DNA from: a plasmid
DNA: 64,000 nt
Sequence record: NZ_CP069608.1
Strand: one strand, 5' to 3'
Made by a program: the position numbers and the translations under genes. Shown here in pieces: positions 1 through 10,682 of this stretch (positions within the stretch are counted from its first letter, which is position 1; each line of letters begins with the position of its first letter). The notes below the pieces were generated by a model. The model was not told the DNA's origin. It did no database searches and was given only the letters and a program-made list of their open reading frames with translations.

Positions 1-361
1 CATAAATTGCTTCAAGCATTGACTTTACAATTGCTTGCACAAGTTTATCCTCCATAGAAGGTATACCTAATGGGCGTTTACCACCTTTAGCTTTCGGTCT
101 ATAGACTCTTTTAACTGGCATTGGCTTATAAGTGTGATTTTTAAGGCTTTCAATCAGTGAATTTATTTTTTCCAAGCTCATTCCATCGATTGTTTTACCG
201 TCAACTCCACTAGTCATATTACCTTCGTTAGGATGCATTTTATTATATACATCAAGGTAAAAATCTATATTGTACAAGTTACGATATAATCTTTGGAATT
301 TATAGTTAGGATTTCCTGCGTGTTTGATTAGATTGTCTAATACTATCGCTGGACTTCTCAT
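1..361 (-). CDS. Group II intron-encoded reverse transcriptase/maturase, N-terminal part (truncated by window edge)
   Basis: Translation MRSPAIVLDNLIKHAGNPNYKFQRLYRNLYNIDFYLDVY...YKPMPVKRVYRPKAKGGKRPLGIPSMEDKLVQAIVKSMLEAIY matches the RT0-RT1 region of LtrA-like IEPs. A GGTG RBS lies upstream. Confidence 0.8.
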   Translation of the reverse strand, partial: MRSPAIVLDNLIKHAGNPNYKFQRLYRNLYNIDFYLDVYNKMHPNEGNMTSGVDGKTIDGMSLEKINSLIESLKNHTYKPMPVKRVYRPKAKGGKRPLGIPSMEDKLVQAIVKSMLEAIY

Positions 362-957
362 AGTGTCTCTCACACCTTTCCGCAATTTGTATTAGTACCA
401 AGTAAGCTGCTCCCCTTCGCCATGTAGTAGGCTTTCCCTACCTCGGACTACTACGGGAACTCTGTTGCCATATCGAATTTTCATGAGCCACATACCTCGC
501 TTTTTACACTTGGTATCATCCTCAATAGCCTAATATATAGGCGCTTCAACTTAGGCAATCCCCATTTAGTACAATTAAGTATGGCTTGATATAGTGTCGG
601 ATGTGACTTTCAGCCTTTACTTCCTTATTGGTATGAGTAGATAGGATTCACTGATAAAACACATGACCGGCTTATTTTATCCACTATCTAAGTGACGTTT
701 CAATCATCTTTCGTCACTGGAGACGCTATTCCCTCTCGGCTTATCATTCAAGCAGTATAGCTTTCATCCTCGTCTATATCCTTTTGTCTTGCCTTTCGTC
801 TTCACTTTTGATGATTAAGTGGATTAAGGCTTTATCACCATGCTGCGGTCCCCAACCTTGTTTCCAAGATTAAGTAAGGTGTTGACAACAAGCTTATTGT
901 GAATTTCAGCTTGCAACTTTGCCAGAGTTGAATACTTAATTGCCCTTATGGGCGCAC
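1..957 (-). mobile_element. Group II intron, 5' portion (domains I-III plus start of the RT ORF); 5' splice site GUGCGCCC at 957; continues beyond the window start
   Basis: Minus strand reads GTGCGCCCATAAGGGCAATTAAG, close to the Ll.LtrB-type intron start. The roughly 600 nt before the IEP ORF are rich in GAAA tetraloop motifs. The RT/maturase ORF starts at 361. Confidence 0.8.
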
Positions 958-1035
958 TGTCATCCCATCTGCGGCTCCCAGTGTTAAATGAGAGGTTAAC
1001 TGTGTCACATCTACGCTATTCAATAAATCTAACAT
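958..1035 (-). CDS. 5' exon of intron-interrupted ORF (26 codons: MLDLLNSVDVTQLTSHLTLGAADGMT), ending exactly at the intron 5' splice site
   Basis: AGGAGTG RBS then ATG at 1035. The ORF runs in frame up to the GUGCG at 957 and the exon ends on a codon boundary. The rest of the gene must lie beyond the intron, outside the window. Confidence 0.4.
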
Positions 1036-1056
1036 GTCTTTCACTCCTCTTATTTG

Positions 1057-1305
1057 TTAATTTTGCATTGCTGGAATACTTGTTGGCTTTACAGAAACTT
1101 GTTCATTTTCCTTTGGTTCGCTTTTCTCCTCCTCTTCTCCTTGGCCTGTAAAAGCACTCAATGCTTGAAGAATTAAATCTTGATTTTCTTCAATGAACTG
1201 TTGATGCTGTTGGTGAAGCCAATCGTTGTATTTTTGGTCATTAACTTTCAACAACTTCTCGACCAGATCCTTTGACTTCTTTACATCTTTTTGCGAAACG
1301 GTCAT
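1057..1305 (-). CDS. Hypothetical acidic protein (~82 aa); start at internal Met with strong GGTGGTGA RBS
   Basis: ORF track 1057..1386; an RBS precedes the MTVSQKD start. Confidence 0.45.
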   Translation of the reverse strand: MTVSQKDVKKSKDLVEKLLKVNDQKYNDWLHQQHQQFIEENQDLILQALSAFTGQGEEEEKSEPKENEQVSVKPTSIPAMQN

Positions 1306-1333
1306 CTTATCACCACCTTCCAAGGGAAAACAT

Positions 1334-1801
1334 TTATTCTTCAAAGTACAGTTCTTTTGATGTTCCAATGAAATGAGATAATTCACCCTCTAATTCAGAT
1401 GGATCATATTCATCAAGCTTAATCTGTTGTTTCAATTCTCCATTCTTATAAGCAGCTAATGTGTCAGTATCCTGTTGTAAACCATAATAAGTTTGGCTCT
1501 TTTTTTGATTGTAAAGAGGATCATAACTGTAAATCTCTTTAGCATCTACATCATTTTCCTTTAACGCCTTTTGCACTTCATTCATGTAAACTACACGTTT
1601 TTCCTCATCGAACGAACACATCACAAATCCCGTACCATCTTCTTTCATGAACTTTTTCATTTCAAGAGGTTTTAATTCTTCTAGCTGACCATTTCCTTGT
1701 ACTGGACTTGAATTCTGAGAAGAGATTGCTGCCGTTCCAATTCCTAATGCAACGACAATCCCTGCGGCTGCCGCCATGATTTTTTGTTTACGATTCATCA
1801 T
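1334..1801 (-). CDS. Hypothetical secreted/lipoprotein-like protein (N-terminal signal peptide)
   Basis: Hydrophobic N-terminus AAAAGIVVALGIGTAAIS; no recognisable domain. Confidence 0.55.
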   Translation of the reverse strand: MMNRKQKIMAAAAGIVVALGIGTAAISSQNSSPVQGNGQLEELKPLEMKKFMKEDGTGFVMCSFDEEKRVVYMNEVQKALKENDVDAKEIYSYDPLYNQKKSQTYYGLQQDTDTLAAYKNGELKQQIKLDEYDPSELEGELSHFIGTSKELYFEE

Positions 1802-2286
1802 TCATTCTCCTTTATTCTTAATATTCAGACATAACAAGCGATTCTGAAACCTACCGAGAGGTATTCATAGTTTATCATACATGTTGGCATCTACTCTGTC
1901 TTTTCAAGTACTAAAAGGAAATATATACCCATTTCTGGCTGGAAGGGCAAACCCTATATTGGCATGCATAGTTTTCACTAAGCCCAATAATGCACAACGT
2001 TTTCGGCATGTACGAAGAACCTCGTGTATCTACTGCTTGGAGTGTCGTCGCTTCGTCGGAATTACCCTCACGCCATCACTCTTCACAGATCGTGGATACA
2101 CCGTCACTGTTTTGTTGCTAGATCACCAATGAGTTTTAGGACGCACTCATCGAACCTTTCTTTTTAACCGTATACCTTGACCCCCTTGTGATCCGTTTAG
2201 GGGAGGCACGCAATATGAAGTTGTCTAGGTTCCATTCCTCGTGCTCTCGGCACGTTTCAAAATCGCTTGTCTGTTTGGTTTAAGAA
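1802..2286. other. GC-enriched non-coding region with local hairpins (e.g. CGTGC-CGAGA-GCACG); possible structured RNA or intron remnant; identity unknown
   Basis: No convincing ORF in six frames. GC content is clearly above the flanks. The minus strand contains GTGCGTCC at 2146. Confidence 0.2.
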
Positions 2287-2541
2287 TTAAGAACTTTTTT
2301 GAATCACTTCTGTTAATTCTTCTTCTCTTTTTCTTCGCTTGGCGACGATGGTATGAGACTGATCCATCACTGAGCGTACGTCATAATAGATATCAGCTAC
2401 ACTCTTAATGTCGCCCGTTCCATTGTCAACAGCTATACCACCTTTTAAGCTGTATGTTCTTCCATCAAAGGTTTTGGCACTTTTCGCCCGTGCGTCTGAT
2501 ATATCATAGAATGCTAGTCGCTTTTGTGCTTCCATGTTCAT
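2287..2541 (-). CDS. Hypothetical small protein (84 aa), co-directional and downstream of the XRE regulator
   Basis: ORF only. Confidence 0.4.
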   Translation of the reverse strand: MNMEAQKRLAFYDISDARAKSAKTFDGRTYSLKGGIAVDNGTGDIKSVADIYYDVRSVMDQSHTIVAKRRKREEELTEVIQKSS

Positions 2542-2574: not shown

Positions 2575-2790
2575 TCACTTCATATCCTTATGATTCGGTA
2601 AGAAAATATCTTCTAATCTAAGATCCAATGCCTCTGCAATCTTCTTCATATTTTCAAACGTTGGATATTGACGAGTCCCATTTTCGATTTGAGAAATAGT
2701 AGGTTGCGGGACTCCCGACAGTTGAGCTAGATAGGTTTGACTCCACTTTTTCTCCAACCTCTTTTCTTTTATGGTCTTTATTTCCAGCAC
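2575..2790 (-). CDS. XRE-family HTH transcriptional regulator (Cro/CI-type)
   Basis: SQTYLAQLSGVPQPTISQIENGTR HTH motif. Confidence 0.7.
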   Translation of the reverse strand: MLEIKTIKEKRLEKKWSQTYLAQLSGVPQPTISQIENGTRQYPTFENMKKIAEALDLRLEDIFLPNHKDMK

Positions 2791-2934
2791 CTCCTTGATT
2801 ACATTATATTCGTTATCGACTAAGTTGTAAACATTTTTTATTGAAATAAATTTAAATTTTTACGGTTAATTTCACAATAACTATTTATTTTGATAAAATT
2901 AATAAATAAATCTAAGGAAAGTAGATAGATAATT

Positions 2935-3345
2935 ATGGATGAGCTAAAAAAATATATTGGTACAAAAATCAAAGAGTATCGTAAAAGCCTAGGTATGACC
3001 ACCATTGAATTAGGCAAGTTATCTAACACTTCTCAGACTACTATTAGTGCTATTGAACGCGGAACGAGATTTGGCACATTTGAATCAATGCTAAAGATCT
3101 GTGAAGTATTAGGCATTACCCTTTACGACATATTACCTTCTGAGCAAAGTGAAAATTTAAATGTTCCTCAGATTCATAATGAACGCATCGCACTTATATT
3201 AGATAGGTTATCTTCTGAAGATATTGAAGTAACAGAAACTCTTGTTATAAACGATATGTCGCTCTTAAGAACACTGAATAAATTAACCCCTAATCAGAAA
3301 AGACATTTATCCAATCACCTAAATTCGATAATAAATAATGATTGA
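2935..3345 (+). CDS. XRE-family HTH regulator with C-terminal extension, divergent from 2575..2790
   Basis: LGMTTIELGKLSNTSQTTISAIERGTR HTH motif. Confidence 0.7.
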   Translation: MDELKKYIGTKIKEYRKSLGMTTIELGKLSNTSQTTISAIERGTRFGTFESMLKICEVLGITLYDILPSEQSENLNVPQIHNERIALILDRLSSEDIEVTETLVINDMSLLRTLNKLTPNQKRHLSNHLNSIINND

Positions 3346-3477
3346 TTATGTAATTTAAATGTTACAGGACTTAATACTTTTAAGGGAGGGTCAAAAAAAT
3401 ACCCCTCCTCAAACAAGCATAAGTGTAGTATAATATTTAACCTTCTTTTATAGATTGTGGTTCTCCAAAACATAAAA

Positions 3478-3538
3478 AAAGCAAAATGCAATGAAAAATT
3501 AGCTACAAACTAACTTCTCATTGCATTTTGCTTTTTAT
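3478..3538. terminator. Long hairpin (16-bp stem AAGCAAAATGCAATGA / TCATTGCATTTTGCTT) flanked by A/T runs; likely bidirectional terminator
   Basis: Seen in sequence; overlaps the stop of the response regulator. Confidence 0.5.
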
Positions 3539-4105
3539 AATTCGTAATTGTCTTTTTATTGTTTCGACAGATTTATATAATTTGTCAGCGATTTGTGATT
3601 TATTTAACCCTTGTTCTTTTAAGGTATAAACTTCACGTTCTGTTGGTGTTAATATCTTTACTTTTCTTTCTTTCCTTAATTCTCCAACCAATAAATTTGT
3701 AACATCAGCATGGAGACTAACTTTTCCTCTAAACGCTTCTCTAATAGCGTTAGGGATATCTCTATAAGATGTTTTCGTTATGTAATTAACAACCCCTGTA
3801 TCAAAGCATTCAAGTATAATATCCTTTTCATCCCAAGAGGTTAGCATAATAGTTTTCTTTAGACCTTTTTTATATAAATGTCTAGCGACTTCAAGACCAC
3901 TTAGGTTTTCTTCGTCACCCTCATCTTTTAATAACGTTAAATCCAATAAAACTACATCAATATTATTATAATCAACTTGTAAGGCTTCTTCTTTGTTGTA
4001 AGCTTGTTTAACAACAATGATATCGTTCTCTTTTTCTATATAATCACTTATACATTGCATCCAAACAGGATCATCTTCTACAATCATTAATTTTATTTTG
4101 TCCAT
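3518..4105 (-). CDS. Response regulator, NarL/LuxR family (REC + LuxR HTH)
   Basis: IVEDDP...DVVLLDL receiver domain; C-terminal LTPTEREVYTLKEQGLNKSQIADKL...ETIKRQL. Confidence 0.85.
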   Translation of the reverse strand: MDKIKLMIVEDDPVWMQCISDYIEKENDIIVVKQAYNKEEALQVDYNNIDVVLLDLTLLKDEGDEENLSGLEVARHLYKKGLKKTIMLTSWDEKDIILECFDTGVVNYITKTSYRDIPNAIREAFRGKVSLHADVTNLLVGELRKERKVKILTPTEREVYTLKEQGLNKSQIADKLYKSVETIKRQLRIIKSKMQ

Positions 4106-5487
4106 TGGCTATTCTCTCCTATTAGTTTAGAGTTAGATTGTTCATTTACCCTAAATTCAATAATTCTCTTGGAAGGCAAAGTTAATGTAAAAGTTGTTCC
4201 TTTTTTAACTTTACTTTTTACCAAAATATCGCCACCATGTTTTTTGAGGACATTGTAACAATAGGTTAAGCCAAGTCCAAAATTTGTTTGATTATGTTTA
4301 GTTGAATAAAATGGATCTAACACGTGAGTAAGTTCATCTTTTTCGATCCCTTTACCCTCATCAATAAAGTCAATATGAATCTTCTTTCGAGTTTTGTAGA
4401 CTTTTATTAAAATTACACCTTGACCATTCATTGCCTCACTGGCATTTTTGATTATATTTAAATAAGTTTCTTGTAATTGTTCGGTATCACCAAAGACTAT
4501 AGCATCAACTTCATATTGTTTAATGATTTTGATACCGGGATTCATATTTAAATAAGGTTTAAGCAAGATAATTGCTGAATCTATACTTTCTCTGAGGGAA
4601 AATTCAGATTCTTTAAGGTTTATAACATCTAACTTACTTTGAATACGCCTTGAAAGTTCTAAAACGTGATTTGTTGAATTTAAAACTAACCCTAGATTTT
4701 CAGCAGACCTTTCTTCAGGTGGAATTTGTTCTTTGATCTGATTCACTAATAAATCAATTTTAGCTATTTCATTTTTTATTGTATGGTTGAACAACGCTGT
4801 ACCAGAACGCGCTGCTTTCATTGTGGAATCACGCATTTCTTTTTCAAACCTAATCCGCACTCCAAGAATTCCATATTTAACTCCAAAGTAAACAAATACA
4901 AGAAATTGGATTACAATAACCCAAGGATTATAATGCCATACGCCCACAATCCCCAACGCTTCTAAGATAATATTTGTAGTCAGTGCAAATGTAAACATTG
5001 GAACTACAAATACACAAGTCAATATTTTTCTTCTTTTAATAATTGGACGATCTTCCCGCCATGCGGAGTATATCAATAAAATATTAGCTGCTATCACATA
5101 TGGTACTACCCAAATCGCTAAAATACGAAAATCAACTCTAAACTCTGGGTATACTTGAAACATAGGATACATAATGAAGACCGGAATTAGTAAAAGCAGC
5201 TTTACTAAATTTCTCTTTCGTTCATTACCAATGGCATCTGAATAAACTATTCCAAAAATCAACATACCATATGGAGTGAAATAGTGTCCTATTGACGTAA
5301 ATATCCCATCCAAGTGTAATACCCACTCTGGCCGTTGTATGCCTTTTCCTAGTAAAGCTCCTATCCCTCCAAAGCCACCACAAAACCCTATAACACTTGC
5401 CCATCTAATTTTCTCATTTTGAGGATTTCTAAAAAAGAGAATTGAACTCATTAACCACAGTAAAGCCACCATTATAAACATAAACAT
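4093..5487 (-). CDS. Membrane sensor histidine kinase (about 6 TM N-terminal sensor + HATPase)
   Basis: Multi-TM N-terminus; H-box FNHTIKNEIAKI; N/G boxes NASEAM...GLGLTYCYNVLKKHGGDI; 4-nt overlap with the RR gene. Confidence 0.8.
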   Translation of the reverse strand: MFMFIMVALLWLMSSILFFRNPQNEKIRWASVIGFCGGFGGIGALLGKGIQRPEWVLHLDGIFTSIGHYFTPYGMLIFGIVYSDAIGNERKRNLVKLLLLIPVFIMYPMFQVYPEFRVDFRILAIWVVPYVIAANILLIYSAWREDRPIIKRRKILTCVFVVPMFTFALTTNIILEALGIVGVWHYNPWVIVIQFLVFVYFGVKYGILGVRIRFEKEMRDSTMKAARSGTALFNHTIKNEIAKIDLLVNQIKEQIPPEERSAENLGLVLNSTNHVLELSRRIQSKLDVINLKESEFSLRESIDSAIILLKPYLNMNPGIKIIKQYEVDAIVFGDTEQLQETYLNIIKNASEAMNGQGVILIKVYKTRKKIHIDFIDEGKGIEKDELTHVLDPFYSTKHNQTNFGLGLTYCYNVLKKHGGDILVKSKVKKGTTFTLTLPSKRIIEFRVNEQSNSKLIGENSQWTK

Positions 5488-5494
5488 ATGTCCA

Positions 5495-6475
5495 TTACCT
5501 CTTTAGCTTATTTTGTAGAAACGAAATGGTATCCTTTGCAATTTTTTTTCGTTTAAGAACTATTCCTGCATGTCCACAATTGTAGACATACCGTGTAGGT
5601 TTCCCCCAAGATTCCCATAACAGATCTGCATCTTGAATGTGAACGTACTGATCGTGTTTAGCAGAAATCAGTAGTATATTATCTTTATTCATTTTTGGAA
5701 TGGCTTGATTTGGCTCGGTTAATTCCCAATATTTCACTAAATCGTTGTAATTCACACCATGAGACTCTAAGTCTTGTCTTATATACTTACCAGGAATCGT
5801 ATTCCATATCGAATAACTAAGGCGATTAGAATAGAATATAGAAACTAATGCATCGATCTCTGACTCAAGTGTAGCAACTAAATTTGAGATAAAGCCACCA
5901 AGACTAACACCTATTATAATTACGGAACCTTGTTTGTTATTTTTTATCCATTGGATCAAAGCCCTTAGATCAACAATTGCCTGTCTAGTAGATTCAACAG
6001 TCCTATTGATATTGGCACTAACCATAAACTCCCCACTATAAAGTGATGCCTCTGGCTGACGTTCCAAGTGGTAAGGAAGAGTATAGTAGTACATATTCCA
6101 TCCTAAACTATTCATAATCGAATTATGAAAAATCTTCTTTACCCTATCGAATCCTTTCATTCGCCAACCATGTACAAAAATAACATTAGGCTTACTTTCA
6201 GCTTCATTTAAGTAAGCCTCTCCTCTTACATAGTCATTGGGATCATCCCCTGAAGGTATCAAACTTTCAAATCCAAATTCACCCATGCTATATCCTTTGT
6301 CTGTAGAAGTTATGTTCAAGCCAATATCTGAAAGTGATACTGGTACTTCAAAAAAAGTTTCTCTATCTATGTTTATTGGTATATGAGCAGAATCAATATA
6401 GTATTGATACTCCTCACTTCGGTCTTTATGCAAATCATTTAAAGCGTAATGATCTATAAGTTTCGAAAATAACAA
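5495..6475 (-). CDS. Alpha/beta hydrolase fold protein (GVSLGG nucleophile elbow)
   Basis: IFVHGW ... IIIGVSLGGFIS motif. Confidence 0.65.
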   Translation of the reverse strand: MLFSKLIDHYALNDLHKDRSEEYQYYIDSAHIPINIDRETFFEVPVSLSDIGLNITSTDKGYSMGEFGFESLIPSGDDPNDYVRGEAYLNEAESKPNVIFVHGWRMKGFDRVKKIFHNSIMNSLGWNMYYYTLPYHLERQPEASLYSGEFMVSANINRTVESTRQAIVDLRALIQWIKNNKQGSVIIIGVSLGGFISNLVATLESEIDALVSIFYSNRLSYSIWNTIPGKYIRQDLESHGVNYNDLVKYWELTEPNQAIPKMNKDNILLISAKHDQYVHIQDADLLWESWGKPTRYVYNCGHAGIVLKRKKIAKDTISFLQNKLKR

Positions 6476-9778: not shown

Positions 9779-9887
9779 TCAAAAAAAGTAGAAATTCCTT
9801 AGAAGCTGATGTTTTAATAGAATATGTTTATTTAGAACCGTGTTCTAAATAAACAATAACCAATAATCTACGCAGGAGGAGACTATT

Positions 9888-10682
9888 ATGCCACATAAAA
9901 TTACCTTAACCGGATCAGCCACAGGACCACTACGAGAATATGATCGCTACGTTGCCTTTGATATGCGTGAAAAAGGGTCACCATCTGCACCGAAAGGATT
10001 AAAGAAGAGTACCTTTATTTCGTATACCGTATTTGTTGCTAAGAAAGCCTTTAATAAAACAGGCCTCACGAAGAAAAGTATCATGCATGAAAAAATCTTA
10101 ATTCAAGGAGAACCAACGTTAGATATTCCGATTGATGAATGCCCTGGCGAAGTAGGGGTGATCTGTTTCCAGATTACCGTTCTACCGAATAAAAACGACA
10201 AAGAGAATGAGTCGGATGCAAAAAAAGAAAGTAAACAAGAAGCTTCTGCGCCGTCTCAATCCCAAAAGAATACGGAACCTACTAAACAGGAAGAAGACCA
10301 AGCACCTGTTTCTCAACCTGTAGCAAAAGAGGAGAAAAAAGAAGCAGAAACGGTACAGACAGAAGCAAAAGAAACAAAAGAAACACCTGTACAAGAGAAA
10401 AAGGCTGAGCCAAAACCGAAAACACTACCGAATCAACCAAAAGGGACACAGGATCTTTTGAGCTTTGATGATATTATCGTACCTGAAGCATTCTTAAACA
10501 CACGTCCGAACCCTGAGAAAACACAAAAGGTCATTGATTATGTGAAGCGTACAGGACGCTTAGATGAGCCATTAACGATTGAAAAAGGCTCCAAGGTTTT
10601 AAAAGATGGCTATCGTCGTTATGTCGTGGCTAAAACTGTGAAAATGGAGAAAGTTCCTGTGGTCTATGAATATCAAAAGTAA
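9888..10682 (+). CDS. ParB-like N-terminal (ParB/Srx) domain protein with K/E-rich linker and a Cys-containing N-terminal domain
   Basis: C-terminal ...IVPEAFLNTRPNPEK...LTIEKGSKVLKDGYRRYVVAKTVKMEKVPVV matches the ParB N-domain signature (DGhRRyxAak...vPvv). Confidence 0.5.
   Translation: MPHKITLTGSATGPLREYDRYVAFDMREKGSPSAPKGLKKSTFISYTVFVAKKAFNKTGLTKKSIMHEKILIQGEPTLDIPIDECPGEVGVICFQITVLPNKNDKENESDAKKESKQEASAPSQSQKNTEPTKQEEDQAPVSQPVAKEEKKEAETVQTEAKETKETPVQEKKAEPKPKTLPNQPKGTQDLLSFDDIIVPEAFLNTRPNPEKTQKVIDYVKRTGRLDEPLTIEKGSKVLKDGYRRYVVAKTVKMEKVPVVYEYQK

Follow-up and report, generated by a model that had tools for sequence, protein, structure and literature searches.

A short minus-strand reading frame at the left end of a 64,000-nucleotide stretch of plasmid record NZ_CP069608.1 (hereafter the window) breaks off at what resembles the start of a group II intron, which raises the question of whether this frame is the first exon of a real gene, which gene that would be, and whether the intron is likely to be a working mobile element. 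The initial annotation had read from the letters a good ribosome-binding site and an ATG at 1035, a frame ending on a codon boundary at a GUGCG 5' splice site at 957, and an LtrA-like intron lying in sense orientation inside a coding gene; it further noted a reverse transcriptase (RT)/maturase frame leaving the window at its left edge and two hypothetical genes upstream, in what looked like a mobile context. By itself, the 26-codon ORF is unremarkable, and it is the sequence comparison with intact genes that identifies it as real. With high confidence, this comparison leads us to read window positions 1-957 as the 5' part of a recently mobile LtrA-like intron in a pilin-like gene, which would splice with the help of its intron-encoded protein (IEP) and spread by retrohoming.

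In the window, the host-gene ATG occupies 1035-1033 and the final exon-1 codon, ACA, occupies 960-958, both on the minus strand, with GTGCGCCC following from 957 (in longer form, GTGCGCCCATAAGGGC). Without splicing, the exon-1 frame reaches a stop three codons inside the intron (VRP*), corresponding to the 29/32-aa ORF of the window's ORF list. The features at this junction are as follows.

1050-1044, minus strand: Shine-Dalgarno sequence AGAGGAG with an 8-nt spacer to the start codon, read from the window sequence
1035-958, minus strand: exon 1, codons 1-26 (MLDLLNSVDVTQLTSHLTLGAADGMT) of a 101-aa VirB2/TrbC-like gene, from the window sequence and intact homologues
953-957, minus strand: 5' splice-site consensus GUGCG, at the point where homology to the empty sites stops
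1-957, minus strand: group II intron, first 957 of 2,520 nt (domains I-III and the 5' part of domain IV), from identity to full copies

A megablast search of window positions 1-2400 against PLSDB matched many Priestia plasmids, whose similarity breaks off at window 960-954, with one record continuing through; the gene is intact in 37 PLSDB records and split in 1 (~38 plasmids in total). Among the empty sites, L001 (NZ_CP058268.1) carries an intact 306-nt gene whose first 26 codons are the same as the window's, and L003 (GCA_025910025.1) has an intact gene even though it matches the window at 100% identity across 8,044 nt (9000-957). Two occupied sites, L002 (NZ_CP069607.1) and L004 (GCA_963966095.1), hold a 2,520-nt insert at exactly the window's intron point, running GTGCG...CTACCCTAT (L002 7438-9957; L004 8845-11364). 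The two inserts are identical to each other (2520/2520) and each to the window (957/957), despite backbones that are only 88% (L002) and 98% (L004) identical to the window's. After the insert, the gene resumes in frame with GGA/GGG TTA/CTA ATT GAA, and joining the exons of L004 and L002 gives the same 101-aa protein as that of the empty sites L001, L003 and L013. One base of the boundary is ambiguous, as G is the first base of both the intron and exon 2; the ambiguity is settled by the GUGCG consensus and by an Rfam model that ends exactly at ...CUAU. By these comparisons, the intron is placed in phase 0 and in sense orientation between codons 26 and 27 of the 101-aa gene. The early reading of this junction thereby holds throughout: AGAGGAG (1050-1044) precedes ATG 1035-1033, codon 26 ends on a codon boundary with GTGCG from 957, empty and occupied sites agree on GUGCG as the 5' splice site, an intact 101-aa gene exists in ~37 Priestia plasmids, and the in-frame exon 2 on which the proposal depended is present in the full copies, where the joined exons restore the intact protein exactly. 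Exon 2 and the remainder of the intron (the 3' part of domain IV to domain VI) lie beyond the window's left edge and are deduced from the copies that are identical over the shared 957 nt. To the left of the window, the replicon is predicted to contain another ~1,563 nt of intron sequence up to ...GGGTGTCTACCCTAT, with exon 2, GGGCTAATTGAAAGTGG..., next in frame.

Identical introns in diverged backbones would be explained by retrohoming. The competing history, in which L003 lost the intron by precise deletion instead of the window's plasmid gaining it by homing, appears improbable: the 100% identity over 8 kb between an occupied and an empty backbone gives no direction on its own, but only 1 of the ~38 PLSDB plasmids with the gene is occupied, and the presence of the same intron in backbones that are 88-98% identical means that horizontal spread is needed anyway. 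For En-plus introns such as Ll.LtrB, precise loss is much rarer than retrohoming. Precise loss from L003 is less likely than gain, and the 100%-identical empty twin indicates that the window's replicon acquired the intron very recently. Homing sites should be plentiful, as several related plasmids coexist in Priestia strains; BIM B-1314D, for instance, has two paralogous operons (L001 and L012).

What kind of intron has been gained is best seen in the full copies. The Rfam group II model RF00029 matches L002 at 9861-9957 with 63.6 bits (gathering score 40), covering the domain V AGC hairpin and domain VI with its bulged A seven nt from the end, and finishing on the last intron base, ...CUACCCUAU. 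In the window itself, Rfam finds no intron family, as expected when the only general group II model is one of domains V-VI, which would be located past the left edge. The Rfam group-II-D1D4 families gave no match to the window's domain I at E <= 1, a miss that carries little weight because these models are built for lineages other than that of the present intron. The protein begins within the window.

2-361, minus strand: codons 1-120 of the RT/maturase/HNH protein encoded by the intron (100% identity in tblastn across residues 1-120)

Its frame opens at the ATG at 361 and exits at the left edge, as the initial annotation had it, the 120 visible residues being the start of the RT. In the full copies, the protein has 605 aa with a YADD motif and carries RVT_1 (PF00078), Intron_maturas2 (PF01348) and AI2M-like HNH (PF21368) domains. 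Against PDB sequences, it matches LtrA (5g2x_C) over residues 6-598 with E = 2.1e-147 and 495 bits, far above the RTs of IIB and IIC introns (<=150 bits), and it reaches the NCBIfam cut-off for group II RT/maturases (TIGR04416, 300.1 bits). On these similarities, the intron is assigned at full length to the LtrA-like (mitochondrial-like, IIA-type) lineage, in line with the earlier designation. The protein is one of a very large Bacillales family, of which at least 7,974 members match at E <= 1e-100.

The plasmid family harbors further introns of this kind, which were delimited in the same way as the present intron (A) and are termed B, C, D, E and F. A second, distinct LtrA-like intron occupies a VirD4-like gene at ...GAT GAA TTT GGA|AAT ATG (LDEFG|NM), an insertion point that looks like the Walker B region. 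Intron B sits there in L003 (12621-15150) and L004 (from 15141), and D, E and F occupy the same site in other Priestia/Bacillus plasmids (L009 3100-5627, L008 3100-5627, L010 3100-5620). L003 thus has the VirD4-gene intron while being the twin that is devoid of the pilin-gene intron; if the window's replicon has one as well, it lies off the left edge. Intron C (L007 683-3199) is found between a small hypothetical ORF and an ORF annotated as a restriction endonuclease on a P. aryabhattai plasmid. Its EBS1 (GUAGAU) and EBS2 (UCAAA) fit its own exon; it served as a covariation control.

The exon-binding sites (EBS) were assigned by aligning the homologous columns of these introns. Complementarity alone is not significant, as a stretch pairing at >=7/8 positions turns up within 600 nt in 77% of shuffled sequences, and the intron has another stretch of this kind at its nt 66. 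In the window, the proposed elements, with the intron-binding sites (IBS) of the exon, are these.

958-963, minus strand: IBS1 AUGACA, exon -6 to -1, of which -6..-2 pair with EBS1 and -1 is an A/G mismatch
966-970, minus strand: IBS2 AGAUG, exon -13 to -9, proposed partner of EBS2 on the basis of covariation
721-725, minus strand: EBS2 CGUCU, intron nt 233-237, just 5' of a conserved hairpin, from covariation and fold context
663-670, minus strand: delta CC (670-669) and EBS1 GGUCAU (668-663), both within the loop that caps a 9-bp hairpin

EBS1 sits in a hairpin terminal loop ~290 nt into each of the related introns, and together with delta it covaries with the exon across three target sites, pairing at 7-8/8 positions with its own exon and at 2-4/8 with foreign exons.

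Intron A (present): EBS1 GGUCAU, exon tail AUGACA; bases 5' of EBS1 against exon +1 onward, CC:GG
Intron B: EBS1 UCCGAA, exon tail UUUGGA; bases 5' of EBS1 against exon +1 onward, UGUU:AAUA
Intron C: EBS1 GUAGAU, exon tail AUUUAU; bases 5' of EBS1 against exon +1 onward, AG:UU
Intron D: EBS1 GCCGAA, exon tail UUUGGU

The candidate delta pairings extend over +1..+2 in A (CC:GG), +1..+3 in its variant A2 (GCC:GGC) and +1..+4 in B (UGUU:AAUA), with EBS3 as a possible alternative. EBS2, immediately 5' of the hairpin before that of EBS1, is complementary to exon -12..-8 and covaries as well (UCGUC:GAUGA/GACGA in B, D, E and F; UCAAA:UUUGA in C). In intron A, the homologous positions GCGUC pair 4/5 with GAUGG at -12..-8, and a register shifted by one gives 5 bp between CGUCU and AGAUG at -13..-9. 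Two other candidates for EBS2 were discarded: the conserved loop AAAGAUGAUUGAAA (intron nt ~247-260) shows no exon pairing, the covarying columns being just 5' of its hairpin, and CCUAUC, 3' of the EBS1 hairpin, is not homologous to the covarying position. An exact scan of species-representative genomes with the EBS1 hairpin of the present intron returned 0 matches. The target bases that LtrA contacts in Ll.LtrB recognition, T-23, G-21 and T+5, also occur at the present sites, which offers a lead on target recognition here.

Variant A2 provides a natural test of the EBS1 assignment. It occupies exactly the site of A in four replicons, L014-L017 (4407-6924), with alleles ...ATG AAT|GGC; its protein, P0057, shares 87% identity with the protein of A, and the two introns are 90% identical at the nucleotide level. 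The ribozyme regions of A and A2 differ at few places, among them EBS1 position 2, where A has G and A2 has U (GGUCAU vs GUUCAU), matching C vs A at exon -2 (AUGACA vs AUGAAU), and A2 forms 6/6 EBS1 pairs and three delta pairs. Judged from these alleles, this compensatory change is the decisive control for EBS1. The two introns are furthermore unevenly related: in a comparison of A (L004 8845-11364) with A2, the ribozyme domains are 95-100% identical and the middle of the IEP ORF only 73-88%, a mosaic that suggests either recombination between introns or much faster evolution of the ORF.

EBS1 pairing has one mismatch in the window (A/G at -1) and two at the L002 allele, which bears on the possibility that the intron is present but splices poorly or not at all, leaving the pilin-like gene an effective pseudogene and the plasmid's own transfer disabled. 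The A/G mismatch at exon -1 would suit such a state, as would the typing of the occupied plasmid H1 by MOB-suite as 'mobilizable', not 'conjugative'. However, this typing is uninformative because the empty-site sister plasmids receive the same or a lesser one, and the catalytic landmarks are without exception intact (GUGCG, the domain V AGC, the bulged A of domain VI, and the 605-aa IEP with YADD and HNH). Additionally, A is identical in three diverged backbones and A2 in four, indicating recent activity, and the joined ORF is intact, with flanking exons that show no decay. Failure to splice is accordingly a very improbable state for this intron. Its intact motifs and recent mobility are instead what a splicing-competent intron would be expected to display, and we infer that it is one.

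The intron's position within the gene depends on the start codon. In the divergent Priestia alleles, codons 1-24 carry 8-11 synonymous vs 0-1 non-synonymous codon changes per allele, and nucleotide differences are distributed over the three codon positions as 18/0/133, a pattern that marks this segment as evolving under purifying selection. The ATG at 1035 is taken as the true start because codons 1-24 are conserved at the protein level, and PGAP picked the equivalent start in the intact homologue (L001 5366). A start at Met25, as in the 75-aa relatives, which would put the intron after codon 2 and make most of the 26-codon exon 5' leader, would accommodate the many 75-aa relatives that align from profile position 25 in an exhaustive profile search and the Bacillus cereus-group homologues that match only from ~nt 67, but it is contradicted by the codon pattern just given, by the strong ribosome-binding site 8 nt ahead of ATG 1035 and by relatives of 55-65% identity that retain the N-terminal extension with an AADGM motif, and it is hardly credible. 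Across the family, the protein of the Priestia clade is extended at its N-terminus by 24 residues under purifying selection, and most of the distant relatives have 75 aa, beginning at the equivalent of Met25. In the alignment of relatives, the intron site directly follows D23-G24-M25, the sole invariant N-terminal motif, two codons past Met25.

Which protein the two exons encode is indicated mainly by its relatives. The 101-aa protein itself gives a sub-threshold Pfam match to TrbC/VirB2 (23.9 bits vs 27.9), with a T4SS_pilin match that is also sub-threshold, and a 98%-identical relative reaches 26.8 bits against the 27.9 cut-off. An exhaustive profile search collected 46 relatives; a Pfam scan of 44 proteins, comprising 38 of the profile-search relatives and six closer homologues, found PF18895 in 37/44 (best 4e-12) and PF04956 in 31/44 (best 1e-9). 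The AlphaFold model depicts a small protein with two hydrophobic helices (2-60 and 62-96) that form a hairpin, at a pLDDT of 68. A profile of the protein against PDB sequences gave nothing meaningful, and a Foldseek search of the model against PDB returned generic helical hairpins only, none at E <= 0.001. NCBIfam has no family for the protein or its four neighbors, and Pfam none for the neighbors. As the structure search is non-specific, the pilin assignment rests on the Pfam matches of the relatives and on gene context, which together make the host gene a probable, pilin-like member of the VirB2/TrbC-type T4SS pilin family.

The context is that of a conjugation operon. Upstream lie two hypothetical genes of the same operon, neither of which matches a family in Pfam or NCBIfam.

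1057-1305, minus strand: hypothetical gene, 82 aa, gene order kept in all related plasmids
1334-1801, minus strand: hypothetical gene, 155 aa, gene order kept in all related plasmids

Downstream of the pilin-like gene follow two hypothetical genes, a VirD4-like coupling protein and a pLS20_p028-family membrane protein, and the operon continues with DUF5592, VirB4, lytic transglycosylase/C40 peptidase and MobP2 relaxase genes. This gene order is that of a pLS20-type conjugation operon, here of a Priestia plasmid, with the pilin-like gene close to its beginning. The mobile context sensed in the first reading has thus become a defined one, with VirD4, VirB4 and relaxase genes, and the two upstream genes that it had noted are confirmed in conserved order. 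Farther upstream, window 2575-6475 contains divergent HTH regulators (2575-2790, minus strand; 2935-3345, plus strand), a response regulator (3518-4105), a histidine kinase (4093-5487) and a hydrolase-like gene. All related plasmids have these genes in the same arrangement, which is plausibly a control module for conjugation. The response-regulator gene has at its 3' end a long and perfect hairpin, rich in AT and followed by a T run (3473-3541, minus strand), that is probably an intrinsic terminator. The only Rfam hit in the window, to plant MIR161, falls on this hairpin with 25 bits against a gathering score of 90 and was dismissed as a chance match. An 84-aa ORF (2287-2541, minus strand) has a weak, sub-threshold Pfam match to pXO2-34 (E = 0.0012, 19.4 bits vs 30.8), which hints at a distant kinship of the region to pXO2/pAW63-type plasmids.

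The available data are compatible with a model in which the operon transcript carries the intron, and the IEP, translated from domain IV, binds it and assists its folding. Exon 1 would be aligned by EBS2:IBS2 (CGUCU:AGAUG) and EBS1:IBS1 (GGUCAU:AUGAC), and exon 2 by delta:delta' (CC:GG). Lariat splicing through the branch adenosine of domain VI would then restore the 101-aa frame, with the ligated junction ...GATGGGATGACA^GGGCTAATTGAA (or, at greater length, ...GCAGATGGGATGACA^GGGCTAATTGAA), while unspliced RNA would yield only a 29-aa peptide. The lariat-protein particle could subsequently reverse-splice into intron-less alleles on other plasmids, followed by nicking through the HNH domain and target-primed reverse transcription. 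IEP assistance and the individual retrohoming steps are drawn by analogy with Ll.LtrB, and conjugation would presumably depend on splicing.

The finding matters mainly for annotation and changes no present view of group II introns. In the occupied plasmids, exon 2 is annotated as a stand-alone 'hypothetical protein' (L002 9922-10185, 87 aa; L004 11371-11592, 73 aa), with a non-canonical start that lies either in the intron or in the exon, and exon 1 is left unannotated by PGAP or called as a 29-aa ORF (L004 8767-8856). Intron-bearing plasmids consequently appear to be devoid of a T4SS pilin-like component because pipelines miss the split gene. Furthermore, two intron variants, three target alleles, and backbones that are identical with and without the intron come together at this locus, a small natural model in Priestia, a host of industrial use in which many related plasmids reside together. 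It would lend itself to asking how an LtrA-like intron keeps up with sequence changes at its homing site and whether conjugation in Priestia is limited by splicing. A bolder idea, which we regard as doubtful, is that conjugation is gated by intron splicing and that the intron lineage tracks pilin alleles through single-base changes in EBS1. L004, and probably L015, has a second intron in the coupling-protein gene alongside that in the pilin gene; if the idea were true, assembly of the mating channel would need two intron maturases, coupling plasmid transfer to intron spread, and the pair of GGUCAU for ...ACA alleles and GUUCAU for ...AAU alleles would present a natural example of retargeting.

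Group II introns in Gram-positive transfer genes are well known, and the present case is a real but ordinary example; the literature searched gave no description of this intron or of any intron in a pilin-like T4SS gene. An intron of the same species complex, B.me.I1/IepA of Bacillus megaterium, is mentioned in PMC1196294 and PMC3552965; it is also a group II intron, and it is probably a different one because H1 is the only near-identical copy of the present intron in PLSDB. On the conjugative plasmid pAW63 of Bacillus thuringiensis, B.th.I1 and B.th.I2 interrupt cell-wall hydrolase and VirD4-homologue tra genes and were delimited by uninterrupted homologues, giving two introns in one tra region (PMC1196294; PMC9673590). 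Relatives of the present plasmid resemble pAW63 in carrying a second intron in a VirD4-like gene; as compared by description, they differ in the other target gene and in that both Priestia introns encode full IEPs, whereas B.th.I2 is ORF-less.

Closer at hand, introns B, D, E and F (L003, L008, L009 and L010) share with A the plasmid family, the operon, the ribozyme architecture, the 5' end GTGCGCCCATA, homologous EBS loops, and an EBS2 core CGUC that pairs with GAUG at -12..-9 at both target sites. They differ in their IEPs (51-54% identical to that of A), in EBS1 (UCCGAA/GCCGAA) and in their target, LDEFG|NM of the coupling protein. A classic counterpart is Ll.LtrB, which interrupts the relaxase gene ltrB on pRS01 and on the sex factor of Lactococcus lactis, and whose splicing, and the need for it in conjugation, have been shown by experiment, whereas the present intron is known from sequence. 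The two are alike in the full-length similarity of their proteins (RT, X, D and HNH; E = 2.1e-147 to LtrA), in the GUGCG 5' end and in lying in sense orientation within a conjugation gene, one that looks essential, of a Gram-positive element, and in having EBS2 just 5' of a conserved hairpin, with EBS1 and the adjacent delta in the next loop. Unlike Ll.LtrB, the present intron has different exon-binding sequences and a host gene that encodes a small pilin-like membrane protein, not a relaxase.
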